64,000 bases of DNA from an uncultured virus (IMG/VR IMGVR_UViG_3300037307_000895) (Duplodnaviria > Heunggongvirae > Uroviricota > Caudoviricetes), in the IMG/VR virus record IMGVR_UViG_3300037307_000895. The stretch is one strand, 5' to 3'. The stretch's first letter is position 1, and every line of letters starts with the position of its first letter. Of this stretch, positions 1,243 to 44,200 are shown piece by piece. The notes beneath the pieces are model-generated. The model had not been told where the DNA came from. It saw only the letters and a program-made list of their open reading frames with translations, and ran no database searches. A program made the position numbers and the translations under genes.

Positions 1243-1341
1243 ATGTCATACGTTAGCAAACATAAACATTTTAGTAAGTTCCATTTTTGGTTTATCACCA
1301 AGAGTTCAGGAGCTATTGCTGATTTGTTTTATGACGAATAA
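1243..1341 (+). CDS. attenuator leader peptide (His/Phe/Trp-rich)
   Basis: MSYVSKHKHFSKFHFWFITKSSGAIADLFYDE; contains GAGTTCAGG complementary to the terminator 5' arm. Confidence 0.8.
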   Translation: MSYVSKHKHFSKFHFWFITKSSGAIADLFYDE

Positions 1342-1366
1342 CGTGATTTAACAAAAGTAATAGGTG

Positions 1367-1398
1367 AAACCCTGAACTCAAAAAGTTCAGGGTTTTTT
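1367..1398 (+). terminator. intrinsic terminator (attenuator)
   Basis: AAACCCTGAACT-caaaa-AGTTCAGGGTTT then T tract. Confidence 0.85.
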
Positions 1399-1409
1399 AT
1401 TGCTAAATT

Positions 1410-1592
1410 TTGATGATTATGAAAACAATAAAACTAATCGCGAAAGCGAAGTTGAATATAAAGTCTCTCAAGGAAAAAAATAATAAATCAGAACTTCTGA
1501 TTGAAGAAAGTTGGTTAAAGTATCTTGAGAACAAAAGAAGAGAAGAGATAAAAGATAGGTCACTTATCATAGATAAAATACCTGTCATGTAA
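1410..1592 (+). CDS. small hypothetical protein
   Basis: 60-aa ORF between the attenuator and the first tRNA. Confidence 0.4.
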   Translation: MMIMKTIKLIAKAKLNIKSLKEKNNKSELLIEESWLKYLENKRREEIKDRSLIIDKIPVM

Positions 1593-1595
1593 TAT

Positions 1596-1686
1596 GGTGT
1601 CGTTGGTCCGAGTGGTCGAAGGAATCTGGCTGTGAACCAGAATGAGTGAACAACAAACAACACGGGTTCGAACCCCGTACGACACC
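1596..1686 (+). tRNA. tRNA-His(GUG), encoded G-1, long variable region
   Basis: GTGTCGT/ACGACAC acceptor, TCTGG-CTGTGAA-CCAGA, TTCGAAC T-loop. Confidence 0.85.
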
Positions 1687-1692
1687 CAAAAT

Positions 1693-1764
1693 GGAGACGG
1701 TAGCTCAGAGGGTAGAGCAACGGCAGAAAACCGTGTGTCGTTGGTTCGATTCCAGCCCTCTCCA
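1693..1764 (+). tRNA. tRNA-Phe(GAA)-like, atypical
   Basis: 4-bp anticodon stem ACGG-CAGAAAA-CCGT, A33, bulge in acceptor stem. Confidence 0.6.
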
Positions 1765-1774
1765 CGAAACATAA

Positions 1775-1847
1775 GGTGCGGTATCTCAGTTGGTAGAGCG
1801 TGGGCCTGAAGAGCCCAGCGTCGGCGGTTCGAATCCGTCCCGCACCA
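1775..1847 (+). tRNA. tRNA-Phe(GAA)
   Basis: GGTGCGG/CCGCACC, TGGGC-CTGAAGA-GCCCA. Confidence 0.9.
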
Positions 1848-1857
1848 CTAAAAATAT

Positions 1858-1933
1858 GGTAAACAAGCTAACTTAGTAGAAGCGTTGGTCTGAAAAACCA
1901 AAGGATCCAGAGCGTAACTGGAGTTTACCACCA
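1858..1933 (+). tRNA. tRNA-Phe(GAA), non-canonical T-loop, encoded CCA
   Basis: GGTAAAC/GTTTACC, TTGGT-CTGAAAA-ACCAA, TCCAG-AGCGTAA-CTGGA. Confidence 0.75.
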
Positions 1934-1938
1934 AATAT

Positions 1939-2013
1939 GGAGTTTGTAGCTTAGTTGGTTAAAGCGTCAGTTTGTGGCACTGAAGAGCGTGGGTTCGAAT
2001 CCCATCAAACTCC
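1939..2013 (+). tRNA. tRNA-His(GUG), encoded G-1
   Basis: GAGTTTG/CAAACTC, TCAGT-TTGTGGC-ACTGA. Confidence 0.9.
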
Positions 2014-2021
2014 CAAAACAT

Positions 2022-2105
2022 ACGGGCACTCAAGTGGTGTGACACGCAGACTCCAAATCTGTCCTGATGGTTAAAGTGTTGTGGGTTCGACTCCTACTGT
2101 CCGTG
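2022..2105 (+). tRNA. tRNA-Trp(CCA), atypical D and variable regions
   Basis: ACGGGCA/TGTCCGT, GCAGA-CTCCAAA-TCTGT. Confidence 0.75.
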
Positions 2106-2111
2106 CTAAAT

Positions 2112-2182
2112 ACGGGTATGGTGTAACGGTAACATTACGGTCTCCAAAACCGCAGATCTAGGTTCGAATCCTGGTACCCGTA
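2112..2182 (+). tRNA. tRNA-Trp(CCA)
   Basis: ACGGGTA/TACCCGT, CGGT-CTCCAAA-ACCG. Confidence 0.9.
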
Positions 2183-2195
2183 CAAATAAATAATT

Positions 2196-2918
2196 ATGAG
2201 ATATTTAATAGGCATACAACCAACAGGTAAACTCACAATAGGCAACTATTTAGGTTGTTTAAAGAAGGGTTTGAGGCTTCAGGAAGAAGGTCATGATGTA
2301 ACCTTTTTAATAGCCAACTATCACTCTTTAACTACTGATAGTTACACTGATGTGACTGAACAAGAGTTGAGAAGACTTGGTTGTAAGAATATTAAAAGAC
2401 AGACTCCTGAATATACTGAGTTATTTTTCAAGTTATCTTGTAAATTAAACTTGGGAACATTGTTAAAAATGCCTCAGTATAAAGATAAAAAGGATGATGT
2501 AGAATTTGATTTAGGTTTATTATTATATCCTGTTTTAATGGCAGCTGATATCATAATAAATGACCCTGATGTAGTAATTGTAGGTAAAGATCAAGTGGCT
2601 CACTTAGATTTGTGTAATGACATTTCTAAGAGGTTCAATGGTAAATACTACAAATATGAAATGGGTGATGTTGATAAGATTATGTCTTTAATTGACCCAA
2701 CAAAAAAAATGTCAAAATCTTTGGGTGAAAGGCATGTTCTTTATATCTTTGATGAAAATTATGAGGCGAAGATAAAAAAGGCAAATATGAATGAGGAAGG
2801 AACAGAAAATATAAAAAAGATAGGATTAGGAATTGGAGTAGATGTAGAAAAATATACAATGAATGTAGACTTGAAAAAGGCTATATCAGAAAAAATGAAT
2901 GAATTGTTTAATATATAA
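2196..2918 (+). CDS. trpS: tryptophanyl-tRNA synthetase (compact, 240 aa)
   Basis: GIQPTGKLTIGNYLG (HIGH-like), YPVLMAADI, VGKDQ, KMSKS. Confidence 0.93.
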   Translation: MRYLIGIQPTGKLTIGNYLGCLKKGLRLQEEGHDVTFLIANYHSLTTDSYTDVTEQELRRLGCKNIKRQTPEYTELFFKLSCKLNLGTLLKMPQYKDKKDDVEFDLGLLLYPVLMAADIIINDPDVVIVGKDQVAHLDLCNDISKRFNGKYYKYEMGDVDKIMSLIDPTKKMSKSLGERHVLYIFDENYEAKIKKANMNEEGTENIKKIGLGIGVDVEKYTMNVDLKKAISEKMNELFNI

Positions 2919-2921
2919 TTC

Positions 2922-3275
2922 ATGAAAATTAGAAAGGTATTTGAGTTAGTAGATTATGAGGAAGTAGATTTATGGAGACCGATAGGACAATATTGGAAAA
3001 CTAATGAAATGGATTCCGTGGAAATAAAAAAATTGTGTAAAATTTTTCCACAATTAAGAAAGCCACATGAAAATGAAAAAGGGTTTACGGTTAAAACTAA
3101 ACTCATTTATGATAGTAAGGATGGTAGAGTGGATATAGATATATTAAAAAATGATGATGAATGGTTTTTTGTTAAGGTTATAAAAGGTGATGTGTTATAT
3201 GGTAAAACAAATTACTATAAATGTGACCAATTTGAAGGATTAATAAAATTAATAAAAGAAAAAATTATAAAATGA
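2922..3275 (+). CDS. hypothetical phage protein
   Basis: N-terminus MKIRKVFE; C-terminal YYKCDQFEGL; TAATATATA upstream. Confidence 0.6.
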   Translation: MKIRKVFELVDYEEVDLWRPIGQYWKTNEMDSVEIKKLCKIFPQLRKPHENEKGFTVKTKLIYDSKDGRVDIDILKNDDEWFFVKVIKGDVLYGKTNYYKCDQFEGLIKLIKEKIIK

Positions 3276-3331
3276 CAAACATTAAAAACATAAAGAAAAC
3301 TAAAAAACGAATACGAGTGGTTCGATGGTAA
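3272..3331 (+). CDS. attenuator leader peptide (Lys-rich)
   Basis: MTNIKNIKKTKKRIRVVRW; ATGA overlap with the upstream stop; GAGTGGTTCG pairs with the terminator arm. Confidence 0.75.
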   Translation: MTNIKNIKKTKKRIRVVRW

Positions 3332-3351
3332 GATATTGCCTAAACGGTAAT

Positions 3352-3389
3352 AACCCGAATCACTCTAAAAAGATGATTCGGGTTTTTTT
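3352..3389 (+). terminator. intrinsic terminator (attenuator)
   Basis: AACCCGAATCA...TGATTCGGGTT plus T tract. Confidence 0.85.
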
Positions 3390-3393
3390 ATTT

Positions 3394-3487
3394 GCTCTCG
3401 TTCGCTTAGTCAGATCCAAAGCAGCTGGCTTTTAACCAGCAGAGGTAACCAAGTCCTCGACCGTAGGTTTGAATCCTACCGGGAGCA
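3394..3487 (+). tRNA. tRNA-Lys(UUU) with long variable arm
   Basis: GCTCTCG/CGGGAGC, GCTGG-CTTTTAA-CCAGC, GAGG/CCTC variable stem. Confidence 0.8.
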
Positions 3488-3497
3488 CAAAACATAT

Positions 3498-3571
3498 TCC
3501 CCCGTAGCAAACAGGTTGTATTGCAACGGTCTTTTAAACCGTAGGGTCTGGTTCAATTCCAGACGGGGGAA
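3498..3571 (+). tRNA. tRNA-Lys(UUU)
   Basis: TCCCCCG/CGGGGGA, ACGGT-CTTTTAA-ACCGT. Confidence 0.9.
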
Positions 3572-3572
3572 C

Positions 3573-3660
3573 TAATCTAGGAGTTGTGGGTTCGAGTCCC
3601 ACCAGGCCCACAAATTTTTTAAAATGGGCTTGTAACTCAACTGGCAGAGTACTAGACTTT
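3573..3660 (+). tRNA. circularly permuted tRNA, probably Lys(UUU): 3' half 3573-3610, 5' half 3626-3660
   Basis: Joined halves give GGGCTTG/CAGGCCC, ACTC/GAGT, CTAGA-CTTT|TAA-TCTAG and GTGGG-TTCGAGT-CCCAC. Confidence 0.75.
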
Positions 3661-3732
3661 GGATTCATATGATAATGGTTAGTCAATTCGGCTCTTACCC
3701 GAAGAGTCTCGGTTCGAATCCGAGTGGATCCA
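3661..3732 (+). tRNA. tRNA-Lys(CUU)
   Basis: GGATTCA/TGGATCC, TTCGG-CTCTTAC-CCGAA. Confidence 0.88.
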
Positions 3733-3771
3733 CTGTTGTATAGGTAGAGTGCCTTTCTTAATATATAGTAT

Positions 3772-4644
3772 ATGAGAAGGCACTATAGTGATATATTTTT
3801 AAGTAAAATAGATTGGGTTGAGATTCAATCATTTTATGATGAAGGAAATTTTTATAACGATATAATAAAAAAATTTAATGTTAAAAGTAATGTATTAAAT
3901 GAGGCGATAAAACTTGGACTCATAAAAATGAGAACATTATCAGAATCAATAAGGATGTCCAAAAGAAGAAAAACATATAAACATACACAAGAAACAAAAG
4001 ATAAAATATCAAAAATAAGAAAAGAATATTTAGAAAAAAATCCAAATAAAGTTCCATATTTACTCAACCACAGTAGTAAAGAATCGTATCCAGAAAAATA
4101 TTTTACAGAAGTATTTGAAAAAGAGAAAATAGAAGTTGTTAAAAAACATAGAGTTAAATTATATGAATTAGATTTTTGTATTTTAGATAAAAAAATTGAT
4201 ATAGAAATAGATGGGACACAGCATTATTATGATAAAAAAATTGTAGAAAGTGATAAAAAAAGAACAAAATTTTTAGAAGATAATGGTTGGGATGTTATAA
4301 GAATAGATTGGAGAAAATATCAAAAACTAGATAAGCTTAATAAAGAACTATTCATCAAAAATTTAAAAAATTATATTAATGAGTTATCAATTAATAAACC
4401 AATAATTACTATAATGCAAAAAAAATCAAATGTGGTTGAATCATTATGTATATGCGGAAAACCTAAAAAGTTAAAGTCAAAAAATTGTAATAAATGTAGG
4501 GGTATTAACGATAGAAAAGTTAATAGACCGTCACATGAACAACTATTACAAGAAATAAAAGAATTGGGATATTGTGGTACTGGTAAAAAATATGGAGTGA
4601 GTGATAACGCAATTAGAAAATGGATAAAAAGTTATAATAATTAA
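3772..4644 (+). CDS. DUF559/Vsr-like (PD-(D/E)XK) putative homing endonuclease with C-terminal HTH
   Basis: YELDF..IDIEIDGTQH..D.KR..FL...GW.VIRI; NUMOD-like HTQETKDKISK; KYGVSDNAIRKW. Confidence 0.75.
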   Translation: MRRHYSDIFLSKIDWVEIQSFYDEGNFYNDIIKKFNVKSNVLNEAIKLGLIKMRTLSESIRMSKRRKTYKHTQETKDKISKIRKEYLEKNPNKVPYLLNHSSKESYPEKYFTEVFEKEKIEVVKKHRVKLYELDFCILDKKIDIEIDGTQHYYDKKIVESDKKRTKFLEDNGWDVIRIDWRKYQKLDKLNKELFIKNLKNYINELSINKPIITIMQKKSNVVESLCICGKPKKLKSKNCNKCRGINDRKVNRPSHEQLLQEIKELGYCGTGKKYGVSDNAIRKWIKSYNN

Positions 4645-8953: not shown

Positions 8954-9019
8954 ATGAAAATTAGAAATACAAATACAAGTTCGTCACGTAGTTCAAACAG
9001 CTCGAAGATTCGAAGTTGA
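8954..9019 (+). CDS. attenuator leader peptide (Ser/Arg-rich)
   Basis: MKIRNTNTSSSRSSNSSKIRS; AGATTCGA complementary to the terminator arm. Confidence 0.8.
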   Translation: MKIRNTNTSSSRSSNSSKIRS

Positions 9020-9046: not shown

Positions 9047-9079
9047 AAAACCTCGAATCTAAAAAATTCGAGGTTTTTT
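9047..9079 (+). terminator. intrinsic terminator (attenuator)
   Basis: AAAACCTCGAAT...ATTCGAGGTTTT plus T tract. Confidence 0.85.
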
Positions 9080-9391: not shown

Positions 9392-9398
9392 CAAAAAT

Positions 9399-9474
9399 GT
9401 TCCCGTATCAGCCTAGTCTTCGAAACTAGAAACTGTAATGGATGAAAATGTGGGTTCGACCCCCACCGGGAATT
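9399..9474 (+). tRNA. tRNA-Arg(UCG)-like, rearranged D-arm
   Basis: GTTCCCG/CGGGAAT, CTAGT-CTTCGAA-ACTAG; D-loop-like TAATGG lies after the anticodon arm. Confidence 0.65.
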
Positions 9475-9480
9475 CAAAAT

Positions 9481-9715
9481 ATTCAGGTAGTTTAACGGAT
9501 AAAACAGTCCTAAAACGTACGGATAGTCTTGAAGAAAGACGGGTTTTAACTTGCTACCGGAGGCATTCAATTTATGGTTGTGTATCAACTGTTGTAAGTC
9601 CAAAGGGTGTGAGGTTCGATCTGAATGGTTTACGGATGCACTGAGAAACACTCAGGAAGCGCGTTTCCAAGGACGATTTGTAAAACTTTTGTGGGTTCGA
9701 TTTCCATCCTGAATA
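9481..9715 (+). ncRNA. tRNA scaffold with ~158-nt insert in the anticodon loop
   Basis: ATTCAGG/CCTGAAT, D-arm GTTT/AAAC, GTCCT..insert..AGGAC, T-arm GTGGG-TTCGATT-TCCAT. Confidence 0.6.
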
Positions 9716-9721
9716 CAAATT

Positions 9722-11409: not shown

Positions 11410-11527
11410 TATATAATTAAATATTTTTTATTTAAAAATAAATTCGTATATTTGTATAATGAGAAGAAATTATAAACATAAGTAATTGTAAGTCAAAGCC
11501 TGATATTTCAGCGATAATGCTGTATTG

Positions 11528-11552
11528 AACCCGGTCTTTGGCCGGGTTTTTT
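11528..11552 (+). terminator. intrinsic terminator downstream of a promoter and micro-ORF
   Basis: AACCCGGTC-ttt-GGCCGGGTT plus T tract. Confidence 0.75.
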
Positions 11553-15646: not shown

Positions 15647-18118
15647 TTATTTTATTTTCACATTAAGTGATAGGTTTATAGTTCTTTCTTGGCGATTATT
15701 CATCAAAGGTAATTCTCTATCTTTTTGATAGAACTTCATATTTTGACCTAATATATTTCCAAGTGATAACTTAAATTCAAAATTATTATTTAATTTATAA
15801 ATTGTTGTTATATCAATTATATCTCTTGAATTTTCATAAATATCTGAATATCCCTGAAATCCAACTAATGATATTCTTTCTCCGGTTCTATTATAAGAAA
15901 TGGTTGAAGATAATTTTCTATAATTAAAAGAAGATGCGATATTAATATTATAAGGAGATTGTCCTTGTAAAGGTCTATTTCCAGTTTCGGTTTTAACATT
16001 TGAATAAATTAAAGAAACATTTGAATATAGTGTCATCCATTTAAAAACATTCTTTCTAAAATCTAATTCTCCACCAAATAAAATAGCACTCTTTGAATTT
16101 TTATAACTTAATAATAAATTAGAAGGAACAGATCCAGCATCTACAATCATTTCTATTGGATTGTCGAATTGTTTACCAAATAATCCAAATGAAAATGTTT
16201 CAGAATTACTAATATTCTTCTCCCACTTCATATCAACATTTGAAATATTTGCGATGGTTAAATTAGGATTGCCTATAATTTGTGCATTTCTAACGAAGTC
16301 ATAATAAGTGAAATTAGATATTTCTCTTAATTCTGGTCTAGAAACGCTTCTACTAGCTGAAAATCTTATTTTATTCTTTTCAGTTATCATATATGATAAG
16401 TTAATAGAAGGTAATAATGACGGATAATTATTTTTTACAATAACATCACTACCACCAAAGTCAGAAGTTTCTACTCCGAAAGAATTATATTCAAATCTTA
16501 ACCCACCATTAAACTTCCACTTATTTAAGCTTTTATCATACATTACATAAGAAGACATAGTATAAAAATTAGCAGAATATCTATCGGTATTATTTGTTAT
16601 CTCTTCTAATAAATCTTTAGATTGATATCTAAATACTCTTGCTTGAAAATATCTATTCTTATTTAAATAAGAAACACCTGTTTTAAATCCACGATTTTCA
16701 TAATTTAATGTGCCATTAAATCCACTTTCATACATTGTGCTCCAAAATCTATAACTATCTCTCCAAACAGTACTAAATGTGTCCGTTGTTCCTATAGATC
16801 TCTGTAAAGGATTTATTCTGTAATCTGGTTGATCTCTGGTAATAACATTATATCCTATTGTACCATTGATATTATCTTTTTTGAAATCGATTAGTGAGTT
16901 AAATAATAGTTTATTAACTGTATTAGAAGATTGTAATCTAACATCTTGTAAATTATCATAGTTTTCTCCAGTTCTATTGATAAAGGAATTTTCTGAATTA
17001 TAATTGAATATATTTTTCCAATTTAACTTAATTCCTTTATTATAAGATAAATTTAATAATCCATTAATAGAATAAGATTGAACATAACCAGTGTCATTAT
17101 AATTATATGCCAATTCATTAGGTGAGAAATATTCTAATCTATTGGAATAAATTACAGAATTATTCCTAGAAGAGGATACACTAAATATTGAAGAAACATC
17201 TCCTATTCTTTGTGATCCATTTAAATTCAAATTTAAATTTGGATATGTATTTAAAGAATATGAATTTGGATTTGATATTAAAGTTGTATAAGTCTTTCTA
17301 TCAGAAATGTCAGAAGATTTAAATTTTTGAGTAGAGGGAAAATTATTAGGAAAATTTACTGATTTAACTGATTCAAAATTTTCATTAAATAGTAGATTAT
17401 TAGTCCCTATTAAAGCACTTAAGTTTAAAGAATTTACATATGTTGATTTTGTAGTTAATTGTACTAAACCACCAGAAAAATCTCCCGGCAAATTAGCTGA
17501 TGGTGATTTTATAACAATAACATTATCGATTATTGAATTCGGTATAATGTCATATGAAAAAGTTCTTCTATCTGGCTCAGTTGATGGTAATAATCCCCCA
17601 TCCATCATTGATAAATTATATCTGTCTGCCAATCCTCTAACGACAATAAACTTATCATCTTGAACTGTGATTCCACTAATTCTTCTTAAAGATTCTCCCA
17701 TATTTCTATCCGGAGTCTTTTTTATAGTCTCAATAGAAATACCATCGGATACTGAAGATGAATTTCTAATGGTTGATATAACCGATGTTACTGTTTCTTT
17801 TTTGTATGTACCCTTTACTTCTACAGCATTTAAAGTAGAAACCTTTTTATCCAAATTAAAGATGATTGTAGTATCTGATTTTATGTTTAACACCTGTTTA
17901 AAATCAAAAGTTGAAATGTGTGTTATTGAAATTGTATTTGTTCCTTTTACTAAATTTATTTGGAATTTTCCATTGGAATCTGATAATACATACGATTTAT
18001 TTAAAATAATAGCTGCCCCTTCTAGTGGCTTTCCCTCCGACTCAACTACACCATTCAATACTTGACCTTGTACCAAAAATGAAGTAATTAAAAGCCACAA
18101 TGTTAATAATATTCTCAT
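15647..18118 (-). CDS. TonB-dependent receptor
   Basis: Signal peptide, carboxypeptidase-like N domain, plug (VRGLADRYN), GNPNL, beta-barrel. Confidence 0.9.
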   Translation of the reverse strand: MRILLTLWLLITSFLVQGQVLNGVVESEGKPLEGAAIILNKSYVLSDSNGKFQINLVKGTNTISITHISTFDFKQVLNIKSDTTIIFNLDKKVSTLNAVEVKGTYKKETVTSVISTIRNSSSVSDGISIETIKKTPDRNMGESLRRISGITVQDDKFIVVRGLADRYNLSMMDGGLLPSTEPDRRTFSYDIIPNSIIDNVIVIKSPSANLPGDFSGGLVQLTTKSTYVNSLNLSALIGTNNLLFNENFESVKSVNFPNNFPSTQKFKSSDISDRKTYTTLISNPNSYSLNTYPNLNLNLNGSQRIGDVSSIFSVSSSRNNSVIYSNRLEYFSPNELAYNYNDTGYVQSYSINGLLNLSYNKGIKLNWKNIFNYNSENSFINRTGENYDNLQDVRLQSSNTVNKLLFNSLIDFKKDNINGTIGYNVITRDQPDYRINPLQRSIGTTDTFSTVWRDSYRFWSTMYESGFNGTLNYENRGFKTGVSYLNKNRYFQARVFRYQSKDLLEEITNNTDRYSANFYTMSSYVMYDKSLNKWKFNGGLRFEYNSFGVETSDFGGSDVIVKNNYPSLLPSINLSYMITEKNKIRFSASRSVSRPELREISNFTYYDFVRNAQIIGNPNLTIANISNVDMKWEKNISNSETFSFGLFGKQFDNPIEMIVDAGSVPSNLLLSYKNSKSAILFGGELDFRKNVFKWMTLYSNVSLIYSNVKTETGNRPLQGQSPYNINIASSFNYRKLSSTISYNRTGERISLVGFQGYSDIYENSRDIIDITTIYKLNNNFEFKLSLGNILGQNMKFYQKDRELPLMNNRQERTINLSLNVKIK

Positions 18119-21230: not shown

Positions 21231-21302
21231 TGCGGGGTAGAGAAGCGACATCTCGCCAGGCTCATAACCTGGAGATCAGTGGTTTGAATCCACTCCCCGC
21301 TA
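21231..21302 (+). tRNA. tRNA-Met(CAU), initiator-like
   Basis: 1:72 mismatch, GCGGGG/CCCCGC, CCAGG-CTCATAA-CCTGG. Confidence 0.8.
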
Positions 21303-21322
21303 CAAAAAATTGTCAAAAAAGA

Positions 21323-21354
21323 TTTGGTGGTTTAAAAAAGTCATCGTATCTTTG
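21323..21354 (+). promoter_or_regulatory. Bacteroidetes-type promoter of the Tyr/Glu tRNA operon
   Basis: TTTG-N20-TATCTTTG. Confidence 0.75.
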
Positions 21355-21372: not shown

Positions 21373-21468
21373 ATGAACAACAGAATAGAAATATCAGTTA
21401 ACGGAGCTTCTTATGAAGCTTATTATTATGAGGAGGAAACTCGCTCAGTTGAACTGGCATTTCTATAA
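21373..21468 (+). CDS. attenuator leader peptide (Tyr/Glu-rich)
   Basis: MNNRIEISVNGASYEAYYYEEETRSVELAFL; AGTTGAACTGG pairs with the terminator arm. Confidence 0.85.
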   Translation: MNNRIEISVNGASYEAYYYEEETRSVELAFL

Positions 21469-21490: not shown

Positions 21491-21521
21491 AACCCGGTTC
21501 AACTAATGAACCGGGTTTTTT
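21491..21521 (+). terminator. intrinsic terminator (attenuator)
   Basis: AACCCGGTTCA-actaa-TGAACCGGGTT plus T tract. Confidence 0.88.
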
Positions 21522-23801: not shown

Positions 23802-23873
23802 ATGAAACAAATTAATAACATATCAGCGATAGCACAAATAGGGGGAGGCGCCGGCGCGTCGTCTTGTGGCTGA
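23802..23873 (+). CDS. attenuator leader peptide (Ile(ATA)/Ala/Gly-rich)
   Basis: MKQINNISAIAQIGGGAGASSCG; TGTGGCTG pairs with CAGTCACA. Confidence 0.8.
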   Translation: MKQINNISAIAQIGGGAGASSCG

Positions 23874-23897
23874 GGTATGTTATTATAAAAGATATAC

Positions 23898-23958
23898 AAA
23901 ACCCAGTCACATCGACTGGGTTTTTAGTTTGAACCCAGTCACGAATGACTGGGTTTTT
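23898..23958 (+). terminator. tandem intrinsic terminators (attenuator)
   Basis: Two copies of AACCCAGTC..GACTGGGTTTTT. Confidence 0.85.
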
Positions 23959-23964
23959 CGATTT

Positions 23965-24047
23965 CGGTAGGTACCGGTGGTGTCTTATACACACTATAAC
24001 CGTAACTGGTATGTTGAAATATGTGGGTTCGAATCCCATCCTACCGA
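23965..24047 (+). tRNA. tRNA-Ile(UAU)-like, rearranged D-arm
   Basis: CGGTAGG/CCTACCG, GGTGT-CTTATAC-ACACT, CGGT/ACCG followed by TAACTGG. Confidence 0.65.
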
Positions 24048-24054
24048 CAAATAA

Positions 24055-24137
24055 GCGGGTATCGTATAATGGAGGCATATGCCAGATTATAGGAGCCTTC
24101 CAAGCTTCGGATGTCGGTTCGATTCCGACTACCCGCT
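24055..24137 (+). tRNA. tRNA-Gly(UCC), enlarged D-loop
   Basis: GCGGGTA/TACCCGC, GAGC-CTTCCAA-GCTT. Confidence 0.8.
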
Positions 24138-24145
24138 CATAATAT

Positions 24146-24222
24146 GGGGGTTGGGACTGCAATGGGGTGGTCACCTGACTTGCAATTAGGAAAACAGACG
24201 GTATCGTTCACCGTAACCTCCA
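24146..24222 (+). tRNA. tRNA-Ala(UGC), variant T-loop
   Basis: G3.U70, CCTGA-CTTGCAA-TTAGG. Confidence 0.75.
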
Positions 24223-24266
24223 CAACATGCCGGATGATCCACCGTTGAATCGCGGTGCCGGCTCCA

Positions 24267-30182: not shown

Positions 30183-30995
30183 ATGTATATGAAACAGAAA
30201 GACTCACTTGGCGATCGTATGAAATTTTACGAATCGCAAACCTGTGTGGAAAGATTACTTCCACTAATTCCAATTGTTGCCAGACTTGATGGTAAAGGAT
30301 TTTCTAAATTCACTAAAGGTTTGAAAAGACCTTATGATGAAAGACTGTCTAATCTGATGGTTGAAACCACTAAATACTTGGTTAAAGAAACCAACGCAAA
30401 CTGTGGTTATACTCAATCTGATGAAATTACTCTTGTTTGGTATTCTGAAGATCTCGAATCTCAAGTTTACTTCGATGGTAGAATTATGAAGATGGTTTCA
30501 GACCTAGCATCTATGTGCTCTGTCTTTTTCAACTCTAAACTGCCAGAATATCTTCCTGAAAAGTCAGATAAACTTCCAAGATTCGATTGTAGAGTATTCA
30601 GTGTTCCAACTCTAACTGAAGCAGTTAATGCTTTTTATTGGAGAGAAAAAGATGCTACCAAGAACTCTATTTCCATGTCTGCTCAATCTTTTTATTCTCA
30701 CAAGGAATTGATGAATAAAAACAGTGGTGAAAAACAAGAAATGCTTTTTCAAAAAGGTGTTAATTGGAATGATTATCCTTCTTTCTTCAAAAGAGGAACT
30801 TATGTTCAACGAAAGAGAGTGTTGACTAAATTTAGCGACGAAGAACTATCTAAACTTCCACCTAAACACAATGCTAGAAAAGATCCTGATTTTGTTGTTG
30901 AAAGATGGGTTATTGATAGAGTAAATCTACCACCACTATCAAAAATTAAGAATCAAGTAGATGTAATCATCTATGGAAAAGATCCGATTGAATAG
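30183..30995 (+). CDS. thg1: tRNA-His guanylyltransferase / Thg1-like protein
   Basis: ARLDGKGFSKFT, YTQSDEITL, FDGR..K, FDCR, WREKDA.KNS. Confidence 0.92.
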   Translation: MYMKQKDSLGDRMKFYESQTCVERLLPLIPIVARLDGKGFSKFTKGLKRPYDERLSNLMVETTKYLVKETNANCGYTQSDEITLVWYSEDLESQVYFDGRIMKMVSDLASMCSVFFNSKLPEYLPEKSDKLPRFDCRVFSVPTLTEAVNAFYWREKDATKNSISMSAQSFYSHKELMNKNSGEKQEMLFQKGVNWNDYPSFFKRGTYVQRKRVLTKFSDEELSKLPPKHNARKDPDFVVERWVIDRVNLPPLSKIKNQVDVIIYGKDPIE

Positions 30996-33551: not shown

Positions 33552-35483
33552 ATGAGGAAAATTATTTTATCTATTTTCACATTAATTTCTATCAGTACAT
33601 ACTCACAAACAGATACATCTAAAGTTGTTCAACTTGAAAATGTATCTGTTATGGGTATTAGAAGTGATAGAAAAACTCCAATATCTCAAAAAATAGTAAC
33701 CAAAAAACAAATTGAAAGAACCTATCAAGGTCAAGAAGTACCTATTCTTATAATGGAAAAAACTCCATCTGTTACATCATATATGGATGGTGGTCACCCA
33801 CAAGGATATACATACTTTAGGCTACGTGGTATTGACCAAACAAGGATTAATATGACACTTGATGGGGTTCCATTAAATGAACCCGAAGATCAAGGTGTTT
33901 ATACATCTAATTATCCAGGATTCACAAACTTTATTCAATCAATGCAAGTTCAAAGGGGAGTTGGTACTTCTACTAATGGTGTTGCGTCATATGGGGGTTC
34001 AATAAATTTTGTTACTAAATCAGGTTTTGAAAAAGAATCTGAAATTGCATTAGGATATGGATCTTTTAATACTATGAGATTCAATTTCTCAAATGGAACA
34101 GGTTTAAGTAAAAAGAATTTTGCTCTTTACACCAATTTATCTCTATATCAAACTGATGGGTATAGGTATAATTCTGGTGGAGATGGTGGATCTATATTTA
34201 TTAGTGGAGGTAAATATGGTGACAAAGATATCATTAAATTTTCTGCATTTAGTGGCATATCAAGAAACGGAATGGCTTGGCTTGGTGTATCTGAGGAAGA
34301 TATAAAAATAGATAAAAAAACAAATTATAATCAAAATGATGCTTGGGATGATTTTAGACAAACATTTACTCAAGGGAAATGGATAAGGAAAATAAATAGT
34401 AAAAGTAAATTCTCTACTGGATTATTTTATAATCGTTTAGACGGTTCTTATGACTATTTCATGAGTGGAAATCGATCTTTGTTTTTAGGATCCAACTTCT
34501 TTGGTTTAATCAATAATTATCAGTATAAAAGTAAAAACTTTAAATTTGATGCGGGGTTAAATATAAATACATATAATCGTGATCACAAAAATATTGAAGC
34601 CGACTATAAAAATAAAGGATTTAGAAATGAATTAAGCATTTTTTCTAAATTAAGTTATGATATTAGTAAATTTACTCTATTTACGGATCTTCAATATAGA
34701 TATAGTGATTTTTCATATGAAGGTGATGTCTCAATGGACAAACTAAAGTGGAATTTCTTTAATCCTAAATTCGGCATAGTTTATAATAAAAATAGTTATA
34801 TGAACTATTATTTTTCTATTGGAAAAACAGGTAGAGAACCAACCAGAACAAACTTATTTGGTGGATCAGATAATTTAACAACTTTAGAAAATGTATCACC
34901 CGAATCAGTAATCGATTATGAATTGGGCTTTAATAGGCGTCTGGAAAAATCGAATATACAAGCCAACTTATATTATATGGATTTCGAAAATGAAATAACT
35001 TTATTAGGTGCTATAGGAACTAATTCGCTACCTTTGATGACAAATGTTAGTAAAAGTTTTAGAAGTGGGATTGAACTGGATTATACAAGAACATCTGCTT
35101 TTGATATCATGTCAACCACTACAACTATAAACTACTCATTTAATAGAATTATAGATGGTGATACTAAATTTCAACCTCTATATACACCCGATTTAATAAT
35201 TAGTCAATCACTTGGTTTTAATTTTCATAAAATATTTCTTGAGGGAAACTTTAGATATAATAGCAAATCATATATCAGTTTAGATAATAAATATTCTATT
35301 CCTGACTTTGTAGTATTTGGAGCAAATGTGAGATATGATTATAAAAAATGGTCAGTATTAGGCCAATTAAATAATATTTTTAGTAATAATTACTACACAA
35401 TGGGATATGTAGTTGATAATGTAAAGTACTTATACACCAATGCTCCTGTTAGTTTTTACATAACAATAAAAAGGAAAATATGA
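33552..35483 (+). CDS. TonB-dependent receptor (vitamin/nucleoside uptake type)
   Basis: RLRGIDQTRINMTLDGVPLNEPE, QVQRGVGTSTNG plug; adjacent to pnuC. Confidence 0.9.
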   Translation: MRKIILSIFTLISISTYSQTDTSKVVQLENVSVMGIRSDRKTPISQKIVTKKQIERTYQGQEVPILIMEKTPSVTSYMDGGHPQGYTYFRLRGIDQTRINMTLDGVPLNEPEDQGVYTSNYPGFTNFIQSMQVQRGVGTSTNGVASYGGSINFVTKSGFEKESEIALGYGSFNTMRFNFSNGTGLSKKNFALYTNLSLYQTDGYRYNSGGDGGSIFISGGKYGDKDIIKFSAFSGISRNGMAWLGVSEEDIKIDKKTNYNQNDAWDDFRQTFTQGKWIRKINSKSKFSTGLFYNRLDGSYDYFMSGNRSLFLGSNFFGLINNYQYKSKNFKFDAGLNINTYNRDHKNIEADYKNKGFRNELSIFSKLSYDISKFTLFTDLQYRYSDFSYEGDVSMDKLKWNFFNPKFGIVYNKNSYMNYYFSIGKTGREPTRTNLFGGSDNLTTLENVSPESVIDYELGFNRRLEKSNIQANLYYMDFENEITLLGAIGTNSLPLMTNVSKSFRSGIELDYTRTSAFDIMSTTTTINYSFNRIIDGDTKFQPLYTPDLIISQSLGFNFHKIFLEGNFRYNSKSYISLDNKYSIPDFVVFGANVRYDYKKWSVLGQLNNIFSNNYYTMGYVVDNVKYLYTNAPVSFYITIKRKI

Positions 35484-41344: not shown

Positions 41345-41458
41345 ATGAAACTGAATAACAGAAATATGACGATTATGAACCTCAATATGGTGGTGATTAC
41401 ATTATGTAATAGAACCTCATATCCGGGTTTTGCTCATATTCCTGATATTATTGTATAA
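41345..41458 (+). CDS. attenuator leader peptide (Leu/Asn/Arg/Met/Thr/Ile/Val/Cys)
   Basis: MKLNNRNMTIMNLNMVVITLCNRTSYPGFAHIPDIIV; TCCGGGTTT pairs with AGACCCGGA. Confidence 0.8.
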   Translation: MKLNNRNMTIMNLNMVVITLCNRTSYPGFAHIPDIIV

Positions 41459-41479
41459 TAGTTGTTGGAAGTAGTAGTA

Positions 41480-41510
41480 AAGACCCGGAACCAAAAGTTT
41501 CGGGTTTTTT
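41480..41510 (+). terminator. intrinsic terminator (attenuator)
   Basis: AAGACCCGGAAC..GTTTCGGGTTTT plus T tract. Confidence 0.85.
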
Positions 41511-41516
41511 ATTTAT

Positions 41517-41600
41517 GGCTCTGTGGCGAAATTGGTACGCGTCAGACTTAAAATCTGATGGACTGAAAAGTCCGTGTCGGTTCGACCCCGACCAGAGCCA
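41517..41600 (+). tRNA. tRNA-Leu(UAA)
   Basis: TCAGA-CTTAAAA-TCTGA. Confidence 0.92.
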
Positions 41601-41609
41601 CAACAAATT

Positions 41610-41697
41610 GGCTGAGTGGTGGAAGTAAACATGGTAGACACACTAGTCTTAGAAACTAGTACCGAAAGGTGTGAGGGTTCGAGTCCCTCCTTGGTCA
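41610..41697 (+). tRNA. tRNA-Leu(UAG)
   Basis: CTAGT-CTTAGAA-ACTAG. Confidence 0.88.
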
Positions 41698-41709
41698 CAA
41701 CAAAAATAA

Positions 41710-41788
41710 GCCTCCGTAGTCGAGTGTGCCTTCTAAGCATTTAATCGTAACGGAACTGAAAATGTGGGTTCGAATCCCACCGGAGGTT
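41710..41788 (+). tRNA. tRNA-Arg(UCU)-like, rearranged D-arm
   Basis: GCCTCCG/CGGAGGT, GTGC-CTTCTAA-GCAT, CGA/TCG followed by TAACGG. Confidence 0.65.
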
Positions 41789-41793
41789 CAAAT

Positions 41794-41878
41794 GGATGGG
41801 TTGCTTTAGAGGCCGAAAAGTCTGGGCTGTTAACCCAGTGTCGCAAGACCGCCGTGGGTTCGAATCCCACCCCATCCT
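41794..41878 (+). tRNA. tRNA-Asn(GUU), long variable arm
   Basis: CTGGG-CTGTTAA-CCCAG. Confidence 0.85.
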
Positions 41879-41883
41879 CACAT

Positions 41884-41957
41884 TGGAATGTAGCTCAAAT
41901 GGTTAGAGCGCGAAGCTGATACCTTCGAGGTAGTGGGATCGTTACCCGCCATTCCAA
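41884..41957 (+). tRNA. tRNA-Ile(GAU)
   Basis: CGAAG-CTGATAC-CTTCG; variant T-loop. Confidence 0.82.
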
Positions 41958-41959
41958 CA

Positions 41960-42050
41960 AGGGAAAAAATAAAAGAAGAGATAGAAAAATGTGTCTTAGT
42001 GTGTTCTAATTGTCATAGAGAGATACATTACGGTATAATTGATATAGAAA
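41960..42050 (+). pseudogene. HNH endonuclease C-terminal remnant
   Basis: Spacer translates REKIKEEIEKCVLVCSNCHREIH. Confidence 0.6.
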
Positions 42051-42131
42051 CGGCGTGTAACCCTCAATCCTGATAAGATTGCTACGGGTAATTGGTAAGT
42101 GAAAATGCAGGTTCGATTCCTGTCACGCCGA
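42051..42131 (+). tRNA. tRNA-Ile(GAU)-like, rearranged D-arm
   Basis: CGGCGTG/CACGCCG, CAATC-CTGATAA-GATTG, ACCC/GGGT followed by AATTGGTA. Confidence 0.68.
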
Positions 42132-42137
42132 CAAAAT

Positions 42138-42223
42138 TGATCGGTGGCCCGAGTGGCGAAGGGTCCGGCCTGTTAAGCCGACGTAGTAAAATACCACCGT
42201 GGGTTCGAGTCCCACCCGATCAG
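42138..42223 (+). tRNA. tRNA-Asn(GUU), long variable arm
   Basis: CGGC-CTGTTAA-GCCG. Confidence 0.85.
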
Positions 42224-42229
42224 CAATAA

Positions 42230-42314
42230 GCGCGGATGGTTCGAGTGGTCGAAGACGACAGTCTGCAAAACTGTATCCGAAAGGTCATCGTGAGTTCAAA
42301 TCTCACTCCGCGCT
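42230..42314 (+). tRNA. tRNA-Cys(GCA), long variable arm
   Basis: ACAGT-CTGCAAA-ACTGT, U73. Confidence 0.87.
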
Positions 42315-42320
42315 CAACAA

Positions 42321-42397
42321 GCCTTTGTAGCTTTAACTGGTAGAGCACCTGACTTGTAATCAGGGGGTTGCAGGTTCGAGTCCTGTTGAAGGCTCCA
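42321..42397 (+). tRNA. tRNA-Thr(UGU)
   Basis: CCTGA-CTTGTAA-TCAGG, encoded CCA. Confidence 0.92.
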
Positions 42398-42403
42398 ATA
42401 ATT

Positions 42404-42491
42404 GGGTCTATGGTGTAATGGCTAAACATCCTTCCCTTACAAGGAAGAGACGAGAAGTATGATCTTGGTTCGAATCCAAGTAGACCCACCA
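42404..42491 (+). tRNA. tRNA-Val(UAC), long variable region
   Basis: CTTCC-CTTACAA-GGAAG, encoded CCA. Confidence 0.85.
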
Positions 42492-42496
42492 AAAAT

Positions 42497-42579
42497 GCCG
42501 ATGTGGCTCAGTGGCGACAGCAATGGTTTTGTAAACCATCACCGTAAGGTCATCGGGGGTTCGAGTCCCTCCATCGGCT
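42497..42579 (+). tRNA. tRNA-Thr(UGU), long variable arm
   Basis: ATGGT-TTTGTAA-ACCAT. Confidence 0.85.
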
Positions 42580-42588
42580 CAGAAATAG

Positions 42589-42662
42589 AGTCTCATAGCT
42601 CAGTTTGGGAGAGCGCTTCTGTGACATGGAAGAGGCCACCGGTTCGACCCCGGTTGAGACTA
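42589..42662 (+). tRNA. tRNA-Val(GAC)
   Basis: CTTCT-GTGACAT-GGAAG. Confidence 0.85.
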
Positions 42663-42710
42663 CAAATAGTGATGGTGATGATGTAACCCCATCATCCGGG
42701 TTCATCACTA

Positions 42711-42782
42711 TGGAGAGTAGCTCAGTTGGTAGAGCACCGGACTGATTTCCGGTGGTCGATGGTTCGAGTCCATCCTCTCCAA
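42711..42782 (+). tRNA. tRNA-Ile(GAU)-like with 6-nt anticodon loop
   Basis: CCGGA-CTGATT-TCCGG, otherwise canonical. Confidence 0.6.
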
Positions 42783-42788
42783 CAAATT

Positions 42789-43050
42789 AGGGAAGTAACT
42801 CAGTGGCAGAGTATCCCCAGACATGGGGGGAAAGTCGTTAGGTTCGATTCCAGCCTTCCCTACAAATCAACGGTCTGATCAACTGTTGACTGAATGGTTC
42901 GAAACATTCGATTGATTATGGTGTAAAGGGCACACCCGTTTCGTAGGGAGGTTTAAGGTTCGATTCCTTATTAATCAACAAAGTGGGAGATTAAGGGACA
43001 CACTCTGGGTTAAACCCCAGAAATAGATAGGTTCAACTCCTATCCCCACA
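42789..43050 (+). ncRNA. three tRNA-like elements with undetermined anticodons (42789-42862, 42912-42979, 42983-43050)
   Basis: Acceptor stems and TTC T-loops present; anticodon arms aberrant. Confidence 0.5.
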
Positions 43051-43054
43051 AAAT

Positions 43055-43127
43055 GCCGTAGTCGTATAATGGTTGATTACACGCCGTTGGTATCGGTGAG
43101 ATGGCAGTTCGAATCTGCTCTATGGCT
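43055..43127 (+). tRNA. tRNA-Thr(GGU)
   Basis: CGCCG-TTGGTAT-CGGTG. Confidence 0.88.
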
Positions 43128-43239
43128 CTGTAAGCATGGTAGTTGCCCTTGTTTGACTGAAATAGTTTAACCCGCAGATAAGCTAGAAGTAAGGAAAAAA
43201 CAAAAAATCTACTCGTCACTGCGGGAAGTGACGTTTTAT

Positions 43240-43320
43240 GTCCAGATGATGAAATTGGTAAACATACCGGCATGAGAGGCCGGCGCCAAAAGCTTGTAGG
43301 TTCGAATCCTGCTCTGGGCA
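43240..43320 (+). tRNA. tRNA-Leu(GAG)
   Basis: CCGGC-ATGAGAG-GCCGG. Confidence 0.85.
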
Positions 43321-43321
43321 C

Positions 43322-43476
43322 TGATGTTGTGGCGGAATTAGGTATACGCGGGGGTCTGGTTCGATATGATTGATGTTGGGTAAACTCCAATGTCTTCCAC
43401 TCAAGAACGAAAACCGCCGTCTGATGGATAAGTGGATAATGAAGTCAGATTGTGGGTTCGAGTCCCACCAACACAA
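43322..43476 (+). ncRNA. Leu-like tRNA scaffold with an insert replacing the anticodon loop
   Basis: TGTTG/CAACA, GCG..CGC D-arm, ~55-nt insert, GTCTGA/TCAGAT variable stem, canonical T-arm. Confidence 0.5.
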
Positions 43477-43478
43477 AT

Positions 43479-43561
43479 GGATTTGTGGCGAAATTGGTAG
43501 CACGCGCTAGTCTTAGGAACTAGTACCGAAAGGTGTGAGGGTTCGACCCCCTCCAAATCCA
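43479..43561 (+). tRNA. tRNA-Leu(UAG)
   Basis: CTAGT-CTTAGGA-ACTAG. Confidence 0.92.
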
Positions 43562-43569
43562 CTAAAAAT

Positions 43570-43655
43570 GCCGCTGTGAACCGATGTGGTAATGGTGCCT
43601 CCCTCATAAGGAGGTTGGTTTTATCCTATTGCTGGTTCGAGTCCAGCCAGCGGTA
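43570..43655 (+). tRNA. tRNA-Met/Ile2(CAU), long variable region
   Basis: CCTCC-CTCATAA-GGAGG. Confidence 0.82.
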
Positions 43656-43656
43656 C

Positions 43657-43821
43657 ATGAATATAGACTTAGATAAACAAATTGAACTAACAAAGATTGA
43701 GTTAGATTCTTACAAATCAAATAAGTATTCTGCTAAAGAAATTGTTGATTGGTTAGAATCTGTTTATAAATCTTTATTAGAATTAAAAAGGCTCAATGGC
43801 GAAATTGGGAGTACGCGATAG
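43657..43821 (+). CDS. small hypothetical protein inside the tRNA array
   Basis: MNIDLDKQIELTK...; 3' end overlaps tRNA-Leu. Confidence 0.4.
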   Translation: MNIDLDKQIELTKIELDSYKSNKYSAKEIVDWLESVYKSLLELKRLNGEIGSTR

Positions 43822-43874
43822 ACTCAAAATCTATTGGTAGAAATACCGTGTGGGTTCGATGCCCACTTGAGCCA
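43790..43874 (+). tRNA. tRNA-Leu(CAA)
   Basis: ATAGA-CTCAAAA-TCTAT. Confidence 0.9.
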
Positions 43875-43876
43875 CT

Positions 43877-44098
43877 ATGGTTTATGGTGTTAATAAATGT
43901 TTGTATAAAATAATTGGACTAAATGGTGATAAAAAGGTGGGTACTATAAAAGTAGTAGCACACACCAAATTAGAAGCTTATTATTATTGCAAAGACTTAT
44001 TACCAAAACATAATAAATTCGACTATCATCATATAAAATTTGTTGATTGTGAATGTGGTCCGATTTTAGAAAAAAATGATTTAAAAAGAAAGAAATGA
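43877..44098 (+). CDS. hypothetical protein
   Basis: ORF track; its stop overlaps the asn leader ATG. Confidence 0.5.
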   Translation: MVYGVNKCLYKIIGLNGDKKVGTIKVVAHTKLEAYYYCKDLLPKHNKFDYHHIKFVDCECGPILEKNDLKRKK

Positions 44099-44142
44099 AA
44101 ATGATTGTAAATAACAGGAATAATTTAACAGATTCGGTCTGA
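44095..44142 (+). CDS. attenuator leader peptide (Asn/Arg-AGG)
   Basis: MKMIVNNRNNLTDSV; GTCTGAT pairs with ATCAGAT of the terminator. Confidence 0.78.
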   Translation: MKMIVNNRNNLTDSV

Positions 44143-44172: not shown

Positions 44173-44200
44173 AACCCATCAGATTTCTGATGGGTTTTTT
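44173..44200 (+). terminator. intrinsic terminator (attenuator of asnS)
   Basis: AACCCATCAGA-tt-TCTGATGGGTT plus T tract. Confidence 0.85.

Follow-up and report, generated by a model that had tools for sequence, protein, structure and literature searches.

Leader-peptide attenuators control the trp, his, pheA, thr, and leu operons of enterobacteria, and the ilvGMEDA and thr leaders are multivalent. In Escherichia coli, the attenuator of pheST, with its pheM leader, places a synthetase operon under the same type of control, and T-box riboswitches read one tRNA directly through a specifier codon, without a ribosome. In the model set out for pheL, the leader is translated, alternative hairpins can form in its RNA, and a stalled ribosome frees segment 2 (PMC3082878). 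The window analyzed here is the whole stretch of 64,000 nucleotides (nt), with a G+C content of 29.5%, taken from an uncultured virus of the Caudoviricetes (IMG/VR record IMGVR_UViG_3300037307_000895). Its positions 1243 to 2918 hold an element, called here the His/Phe/Trp (HFW) unit, which its sequence makes very likely to be a ribosome-mediated (leader-peptide) transcription attenuator heading a phage operon. The promoter-like site, leaders, terminators, tRNA genes, and synthetase genes of this and the similar units of the window all lie on the plus strand.

The HFW leader is an open reading frame (ORF) of 32 codons (1243 to 1341) that reads MSYVSKHKHFSKFHFWFITKSSGAIADLFYDE. The core HKHFSKFHFWF, which the first-pass annotation had placed ahead of 1302 to 1310, is indeed read there as codons 7 to 17 (1261 to 1293), and eight of these 11 codons specify His (three CAT), Phe (four TTT or TTC), or Trp (one TGG). 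Over the whole leader, 9 of 31 residues are His, Phe, or Trp, compared with a background of 8.6% in the long ORFs of the window (binomial P = 0.0009), and all nine codons are readable by the tRNAs encoded downstream. A putative promoter of the Bacteroidota type, a pattern match consisting of TTTG, 20 nt, and TATCTTTG, is located at 1178 to 1209. The pattern TTTG-N18-22-TAnnTTTG, which we take to be the Bacteroidetes promoter consensus, has 17 matches in the window versus 4.39 ± 2.17 expected, and five of these sites precede leaders. In addition, a 15-base core (1200 to 1214) is common to the promoter-like sites ahead of the HFW, Arg/Ser, and Tyr/Glu leaders, with three exact and two near copies in the window versus 0.30 expected.

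The RNA of the leader region can adopt alternative pairings. Segment 1 (1271 to 1291) lies within the Phe/His/Trp codons, at codons 10 to 17 (F S K F H F W F); its partner in the minimum free energy (MFE) structure of the free RNA is segment 2 (1297 to 1322). Segment 2, whose alternative partners are segments 1 and 3, has the core GAGTTCAGG (1302 to 1310). The first-pass annotation had described this core as perfectly complementary to CCTGAACTC (1371 to 1379), and both reading of the sequence and a script found the two to be exact reverse complements. The intrinsic terminator (1366 to 1398) is made up of segment 3 (1366 to 1378, its core extending to 1379), a loop, segment 4 (1384 to 1396), and a T run (1393 to 1398); a terminator scan recovered it as 1366 to 1396, with 13 pairs, five of them G-C, followed by the T run, and the hairpin has an energy of −17.7 kcal/mol. 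The region from 1225 to 1400 folds with an MFE of −52.9 kcal/mol versus −26.55 ± 3.18 kcal/mol for 200 shuffles, none of which was as good (z = −8.29), and its MFE structure consists of a long hairpin (1239 to 1348) holding the 1:2 pairing, plus the terminator. The best duplex between the 3′ part of the leader and the 5′ arm of the terminator has an energy of −17.4 kcal/mol, which was matched by 1 of 1,000 shuffles of the leader part. The pair lists and masked folds show that the antiterminator (2:3) and the terminator (3:4) are mutually exclusive and that the 1:2 hairpin overlaps the regulatory codons. The masked folds used nascent RNA up to 1383, where segment 4 is not yet present, and represented the ribosome as a single-stranded mask reaching 12 nt to the 5′ side and 13 nt to the 3′ side of the first P-site base, a size assumed from general knowledge. 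With the A site at codons 2 to 17, a 10-pair 2:3 antiterminator is the nascent MFE structure; with the A site at codons 19 to 31 it is absent, and it is not formed in the nascent fold without a ribosome.

The tRNA array behind the terminator (1597 to 2183) encodes tRNA-His (1597 to 1687), three tRNA-Phe (1693 to 1765, 1775 to 1848, and 1858 to 1933), a second tRNA-His (1940 to 2014), a tRNA-Trp with anticodon CCA and a long variable arm (2022 to 2106), and a second tRNA-Trp (2112 to 2183), with A as its discriminator base. All were called by ARAGORN at default settings except the tRNA-Trp at 2022 to 2106, which was called at the relaxed threshold only and is missing from the list of Rfam matches at gathering score. 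The trpS gene (2196 to 2918), encoding a compact tryptophanyl-tRNA synthetase (TrpRS) of 240 amino acids (aa), follows. The earlier statement that only two His, three Phe, and two Trp tRNAs and trpS lie downstream is correct as to the presence of these genes, but the unit holds more. An ORF of 60 codons and unknown status (1410 to 1592), for which neither Pfam nor NCBIfam gave a family and tblastn gave no match among the loci compared, lies between the terminator and the first tRNA, and a 117-aa ORF without a family (2922 to 3275) lies behind trpS. The stop codon of the latter overlaps the start of a Lys leader (ATGA), no plus-strand terminator is present between trpS and that leader, and the unit continues to the Lys attenuator. 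The products behind the HFW leader are tRNAs, TrpRS, and two ORFs without a family, with none of the amino-acid biosynthesis genes of the classical set.

Seven leader-terminator units, each with cognate codons, are present in the window, the HFW unit included. The Lys leader MTNIKNIKKTKKRIRVVRW (3272 to 3331; unit 3272 to 3390), with terminator arms at 3352 to 3366 and 3371 to 3384 and a T run, precedes three tRNA-Lys genes (3394 to 3733). The Arg/Ser leader MKIRNTNTSSSRSSNSSKIRS (8954 to 9019) and its terminator (9047 to 9077) end 13 nt ahead of tRNA-Arg and Ser tRNAs, and the Tyr/Glu leader MNNRIEISVNGASYEAYYYEEETRSVELAFL (21373 to 21468) and its terminator (21491 to 21517) end 8 nt ahead of five tRNAs (Tyr, Glu, Tyr, Glu, and Glu). 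The Gly/Ala leader MKQINNISAIAQIGGGAGASSCG (23802 to 23873; unit 23802 to 23958) is followed by two tandem terminators and Gly/Ala tRNAs. A leader containing Asn, Met, Ile, Leu, Val, Thr, and Cys codons, MKLNNRNMTIMNLNMVVITLCNRTSYPGFAHIPDIIV (41345 to 41458; terminator 41479 to 41509), precedes a 15-tRNA array (41517 to 43875) that includes Leu, Asn, Ile, Asn, Cys, Thr, and Val tRNAs. The Asn leader MKMIVNNRNNLTDSV (44095 to 44142), with four Asn codons and one AGG, and its terminator (44173 to 44196) head a unit reaching to 45485, which contains asnS (44229 to 45407; TIGR00457, 390.6 bits against a cut-off of 342.6) and, behind it, tRNA-Arg(CCT) (45413 to 45485).

These units share more than their gene order. 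Cognate residues are enriched in the leaders, with P values from 1.5e-6 to 0.016, and when the six tRNA leaders were assigned to the six arrays, the true assignment (score, 2.53) outranked every other of the 720 permutations (mean, 0.96; next best, 2.14). At all seven leaders, the terminator 5′ arm pairs best with the 3′ end of the ORF, past the cognate codons, and the energy of this segment 2:segment 3 pairing was reached by 1, 1, 4, 8, 3, 3, and 12 of 1,000 shuffles. In four arrays, the first tRNA begins 3 to 13 nt past the terminator T run, which leaves no room for a promoter, so that the tRNAs of these arrays need terminator read-through. The Lys and Asn leaders lack a promoter motif of their own, and their start codons overlap the stop codon of the preceding ORF (ATGA); these attenuators therefore stand in series. 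tRNA counts for the window were 40 with ARAGORN at default settings, 40 with Rfam at gathering score, and 49 with ARAGORN at the relaxed threshold. Behind a leader and terminator lie 38 of the 40 default ARAGORN tRNAs; the two ungated ones are tRNA-Gly(TCC) (30011), which immediately follows a promoter-like site, and tRNA-Met (21231). Given this recurrence, attenuation is probably a genome-wide scheme that extends beyond the single unit noted first.

In the databases, the window comes closest to records of uncultured huge phages, namely, LR756502.1 (642 kb) and LR756501.1 and LR756503.1 (735 kb), which we take to be records of Al-Shayeb et al. 2020. The relatives are uncultured phages of huge size, whose hosts are probably Bacteroidota. 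The main text of that study reports a 735-kb phage genome and predicts that the clade with the largest genomes infects Bacteroidetes (PMC7162821). The window fits a Bacteroidota host in its excess of promoter pattern matches and in its two TonB-dependent receptor-like genes (15647 to 18118, on the minus strand, and 33552 to 35483); an RNA ligase gene (PF09414; 13595 to 14320) is also present. The relatives compared were 13 IMG/VR loci, whose TrpRS is 62 to 91% identical to that of the window, two GenBank loci, and the loci returned by a pattern scan of viral contigs. The sequencing runs matching the window were DNA metagenomes, and two possible RNA runs contained 0.08 of its words. HFW-type leaders were found in six lineages (the window with L004 and L040; L001; L006; L016; L002 with L013; and L014), and those of L001, L002, L004, L006, L013, L014, and L016 come with a terminator and cognate tRNAs. 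The scan with a degenerate DNA pattern returned 41 loci, in 10 of which the match lies in a short ORF; eight of these 10, from three lineages, have a terminator and cognate tRNAs. The remaining loci were rejected as chance matches in long genes.

The N-terminal core of the leader, KHKHFSK..KWF, is kept across lineages, and the peptide beyond this core is not. The pairing of segments 2 and 3 is kept with changed sequences, namely, UUCAGG/CCUGAA, UUCGGGG/CCCCGAA, CUUGG/CCAAG, and AUUCGA/UCGAAU. Because a MAFFT alignment of eight HFW leaders set the segment 2 and segment 3 columns of L001 one base off, this pairing was judged for each sequence by its duplex energy and shuffles, and it lies clearly above shuffles in L004, L002, L014, and L016 (reached by 1, 5, 4, and 0 of 1,000 shuffles, respectively). 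Between the window and L004, its closest relative, codons 1 to 24 differ by four synonymous changes and one replacement, one change keeping a segment 2:segment 3 pair as G-U, and the leader peptides diverge after segment 2. Leaders and arrays also change together. Arg, Trp, and Ser are frequent in the leaders of L011 and L012, whose arrays combine tRNAs for Arg, Ser, and Trp with trpS; a leader of L014 that lacks Phe but contains His and Trp precedes Trp, His, and His tRNAs; a second L014 leader, rich in Arg and Ile, precedes one Ile and three Arg tRNAs; and in L002 and L013, Lys and Ser are added in the leaders and likewise in the arrays. For 27 leader-array pairs, collected by an unfiltered script with a few false ones included, the mean own-array fraction was 0.327 versus 0.166 ± 0.020 when permuted, a value reached by 0 of 10,000 permutations. 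In L004, a 207-aa gene resembling histidyl-tRNA synthetase (HisRS; TIGR00442, 146.1 bits, below the cut-off) takes the place of the 60-codon ORF of the window, between the HFW terminator and the tRNAs. In the complete 642-kb genome LR756502.1, Rfam gives 50 tRNA matches, grouped in a few clusters, and eight leader-terminator units precede 45 of them. One of its leaders, MTTSFQQQQQQQINRTD, has seven consecutive Gln codons and precedes four tRNA-Gln genes; the others include a leader containing Asp, Gln, and Pro ahead of Pro and Asp tRNAs and leaders of the Tyr/Glu, Ile/Gly/Ala, and Asn/Leu/Met/Thr/Val types.

At the sequence level, the anatomy of the unit, the six further units in the window, and the conservation in diverged relatives support the His/Phe/Trp attenuator proposed in the first-pass annotation, and the following course of events can be suggested. 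We infer that transcription starts from the Bacteroidota-type promoter at about 1178 to 1209, that the 32 codons of the leader are translated, and that ribosome and polymerase are suitably timed. In free RNA, segment 1 would pair with segment 2, and segments 3 and 4 would form the terminator, stopping transcription before the tRNAs. A ribosome stalled in codons 7 to 17 by scarcity of charged tRNA-His, -Phe, or -Trp would cover segment 1, so that segment 2 would pair with segment 3. This 2:3 pairing would block the terminator, and the polymerase would read on into the two His, three Phe, and two Trp tRNAs, trpS, and the 117-aa ORF, up to the Lys attenuator. A ribosome that had passed codon 18 would instead cover segment 2, and termination would follow. 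The additional cognate tRNAs and TrpRS would relieve the stall, and the output would thus exert negative feedback on decoding capacity. On these sequence features, the phage probably makes these tRNAs and TrpRS only while ribosomes read His, Phe, and Trp codons slowly.

Several observations weigh against this attenuator model. The stop codon (1339 to 1341) lies 29 nt beyond segment 2, so that a ribosome there leaves segment 2 uncovered, and with the mask at codons 32 and 33 the antiterminator reappears as the nascent MFE structure; termination at that stage would therefore depend on timing or on quick refolding of the 1:2 hairpin. His codons 7 and 9 precede segment 1, and with a ribosome there 14 to 15 pairs of the 1:2 hairpin remain in full-length folds, so that these codons may contribute less than His codon 14. 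About 200 nt, including the 60-codon ORF, separate the terminator from the first tRNA, unlike in four other arrays, and two pattern scans, which can miss a promoter, found none in this gap. Among the relatives, the segment 2:segment 3 pairing of L001 and L006 does not stand out clearly from shuffles (53 and 84 of 1,000), and in a cross-lineage matrix the own terminator is the best partner for six of eight leaders, a partial diagonal that results from the CCNGAA-like core common to the terminators. The relatives are also kin, so that the permutation figures overstate independence. Finally, more tRNA is no cure for amino-acid starvation, so that the physiological sense of such control for tRNA genes is something we infer.

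This last point leads to the first of the other explanations, in which the same device reports starvation of the host for amino acids, through uncharged tRNA, and not a shortage of tRNA molecules. The mechanism itself is blind to the cause of the stall, and three synthetase genes (trpS, asnS, and the HisRS-like gene of L004) stand behind cognate leaders, where more enzyme could aid charging when the amino acid is scarce. The main products, however, are tRNAs, which are useless when the amino acid is lacking, and synonymous leader codons track the anticodons of the arrays, although the counts are small. In the leaders of L011 and L012, the Arg codons are AGA and AGG, and the arrays there hold Arg(TCT) or Arg(CCT); CGT and CGA are the Arg codons in the Arg/Ser cluster, ahead of Arg(ACG), although CGN makes up 12% of the Arg codons in the long ORFs of the window; and the Asn leader has AGG as its sole Arg codon, with tRNA-Arg(CCT) following asnS. 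This match hints that tRNA species matter beyond amino acids alone, with the reservations that the Arg-codon counts are small and that GC-rich codons may also serve RNA structure. We consider a starvation signal rather unlikely on balance.

If the hairpin were an ordinary constitutive or leaky terminator preceded by a chance ORF, the tRNAs would arise from leak-through or an unseen promoter; the genome is AT rich, with many short ORFs, and the 200-nt gap behind the HFW terminator would suit this explanation. Two pattern scans of the gap showed no promoter-like site, and chance would have to account for cognate enrichment at seven leaders, an assignment of identities that tops 720 permutations, a peptide core conserved across lineages with synonymous changes, and complementarity to the terminator arm above that of shuffles, which together make this explanation highly improbable. 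We attach equally little credence to an RNA-only or protein-mediated switch acting on the terminator, T-box-like or operated by a phage antiterminator protein, with the ORF irrelevant. T-box leaders control synthetase genes in Firmicutes, and huge phages encode many proteins of unknown function, but tRNA is the only Rfam family that reaches gathering score in the window, and a permissive scan of 1150 to 1620 gave no T-box match, only subthreshold matches driven by the terminator. Leaders that list three or seven amino acids are impossible for a single specifier, and at all seven leaders the alternative pairing is exactly placed relative to the reading frame. That the short ORF encodes a small protein with its own function is scarcely credible: the amino-acid sequence of its N-terminal half is conserved, but the conserved residues match the downstream tRNAs and change along with the array, and the C-terminal half is not conserved as a peptide yet keeps the pairing with the terminator.

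Returning to ribosome-mediated attenuation, a broader proposal can be made tentatively, with somewhat less than even confidence. The units may form a modular supply-and-demand controller, in which nearly every tRNA array or synthetase gene is wired to its own codon-specific sensor of ribosome speed, tuned to isoacceptors, and by which the phage would detect and replace host tRNAs that run short through its own codon demand, host shut-off, or defense nucleases that cut tRNA. If this is true, leader-peptide attenuation would be a viral countermeasure that reads tRNA pools and not amino acids. This wiring bears on why large phages carry tRNAs and when they use them: it implies production on demand for each amino acid, a testable mechanism. 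The amino acids of a leader could also predict the identity of odd tRNAs overlooked by programs, and the short leader-terminator cassettes could be used to sense decoding speed at specific codons.

The 240-aa TrpRS matches PF00579 (131.4 bits, E = 5.4e-38) and, over profile positions 6 to 224 of 328, TIGR00233 (126.7 bits, under the cut-off of 176.75), and the next synthetase type, tyrS, scores 40.9 bits. The best solved TrpRS relatives have 322 to 388 aa and align over query residues 5 to 207. The enzyme is thus shorter than every solved TrpRS matched, which bears out the earlier remark on its length, and this length is conserved. Across 12 aligned phage TrpRS sequences of about 235 to 240 aa, 62 to 91% identical to that of the window, KMSKS is invariant and the HIGH-type motif reads TIGN in three and HIGN in nine. 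The AlphaFold2 model of the enzyme (predicted local distance difference test score of 86.3) aligns by VIA-align with Geobacillus stearothermophilus TrpRS (1I6K, 326 to 328 aa) with a Z score of 22.6 and a root mean square deviation of 2.6 over 238 residues at 31% identity, covering chain residues 2 to 282 of 326. The two proteins have in common PF00579, the fold, TIGN/HIGN, KMSKS, and GxDQ. Compared with 1I6K, the modeled phage enzyme is shortened by internal deletions, for example, of 13 residues after query residue 61, and lacks roughly 45 residues at its C-terminal end. The compact TrpRS represents a stable family rather than a broken gene, because the best 120 of 7,987 database matches share a length of 236 to 284 aa; they lie on contigs of up to 712 kb. 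A literature search that covered few subscription journals found no account of a trimmed phage TrpRS, and the 240-aa enzyme, conserved across metagenomic sequences numbering in the hundreds, offers a natural test of the minimal content that such an enzyme needs. This phage group has a second trimmed synthetase in the HisRS-like protein of L004 (2209 to 2832), which likewise lies behind an HFW leader and reaches about half of the length usual for HisRS (406 positions in the hisS profile).

Other features of the tRNA genes were also noted. Many tRNAs other than those for Leu, Ser, and Tyr are 83 to 95 nt long through insertions in the variable region (1597 to 1687, 2022 to 2106, 3394 to 3488, and others); a tRNA-His has an A-rich insert of about 23 nt, and the variable arm is long in one tRNA-Trp and one tRNA-Lys. 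A gene for a Thg1-like tRNA-His guanylyltransferase (30183 to 30995; PF04446, E = 3.6e-32) lies just downstream of the lone tRNA-Gly(TCC), and its product may add G-1 to the phage tRNA-His. T-arm-like GGTTCGA motifs occur in the arrays at 9393 to 9721, 23960 to 24266, and 42784 to 43054, where ARAGORN at default settings calls no tRNA; these stretches are probably further odd tRNAs, one resembling Arg(TCG). The tRNA-Met lies just upstream of the Tyr/Glu promoter-like site (21231 to 21354), and LR756502.1 (L058, 1175 to 1441) has a tRNA-Met(CAT) ahead of the attenuator, after the promoter-like site and before the Tyr/Glu leader, so that the Met tRNA stands outside the Tyr/Glu gate in both. The two tandem Gly/Ala terminators (23898 to 23958) are nearly identical, and a homolog of ribosomal protein L5 (24742 to 25260; PF00281 and PF00673), encoded immediately behind the Gly/Ala tRNA array, possibly belongs to that attenuated unit. 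A possible further attenuator at 11459 to 11548 consists of an 8-codon ORF (MRRNYKHK) with a promoter-like site and a terminator (11528 to 11548); ordinary small ORFs follow it, and no tRNAs. Homing-endonuclease-like ORFs are found among the tRNA arrays, one in the window (3772 to 4644; DUF559/NUMOD3) and one in L003 (1067 to 1858; GIY-YIG-like by eye), and such ORFs also adjoin trpS; their insertion may explain the rearranged arrays between relatives.

With regard to known systems, a literature search that covered few subscription journals found no description of tRNA genes controlled by leader peptides, and the words "attenuat," "leader," and "terminator" do not occur in the main text of Al-Shayeb et al. 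2020 (PMC7162821). A leader was looked for ahead of an E. coli tRNA-Phe gene, and the approximately 100 nt upstream of K-12 pheV, the one such gene inspected, show no leader ORF or terminator. None of the Rfam leader families (His_leader, Trp_leader, Phe_leader, Thr_leader, and Leu_leader) matches the window at gathering score, the best permissive scores being 23.6 bits for Thr_leader and 16.2 bits for Phe_leader against cut-offs of 55. Rfam T-box likewise has no match at gathering score in the window and none up to an E value of 10 in 1150 to 1620. The phage units share with T-box riboswitches the tie between synthetase expression and tRNA charging through a choice of terminator or antiterminator, and differ from them in having in-frame leaders for several amino acids. 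With E. coli pheST they have in common a cognate-codon leader ahead of an aminoacyl-tRNA synthetase gene, as at trpS and asnS, although the pheST regulated unit is without tRNA genes. The likeness to the enterobacterial attenuators includes the short leader, the clustered cognate codons, the 1:2, 2:3, and 3:4 hairpins, the intrinsic terminator, and several amino acids per leader, as in ilv and thr. Unlike those attenuators, the phage units belong to a viral genome and regulate tRNA and synthetase genes instead of biosynthetic enzymes, at least seven of them occur in 64 kb and cover nearly all phage tRNAs, and the HFW stop codon is set well beyond segment 2. A textbook form of control, hitherto associated with amino-acid biosynthesis and one synthetase operon, would thereby extend to tRNA genes and to viruses. 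The window features synthetase genes behind cognate leaders and attenuators in series; the mechanism is classical, and its targets, tRNA genes in a phage, are not.

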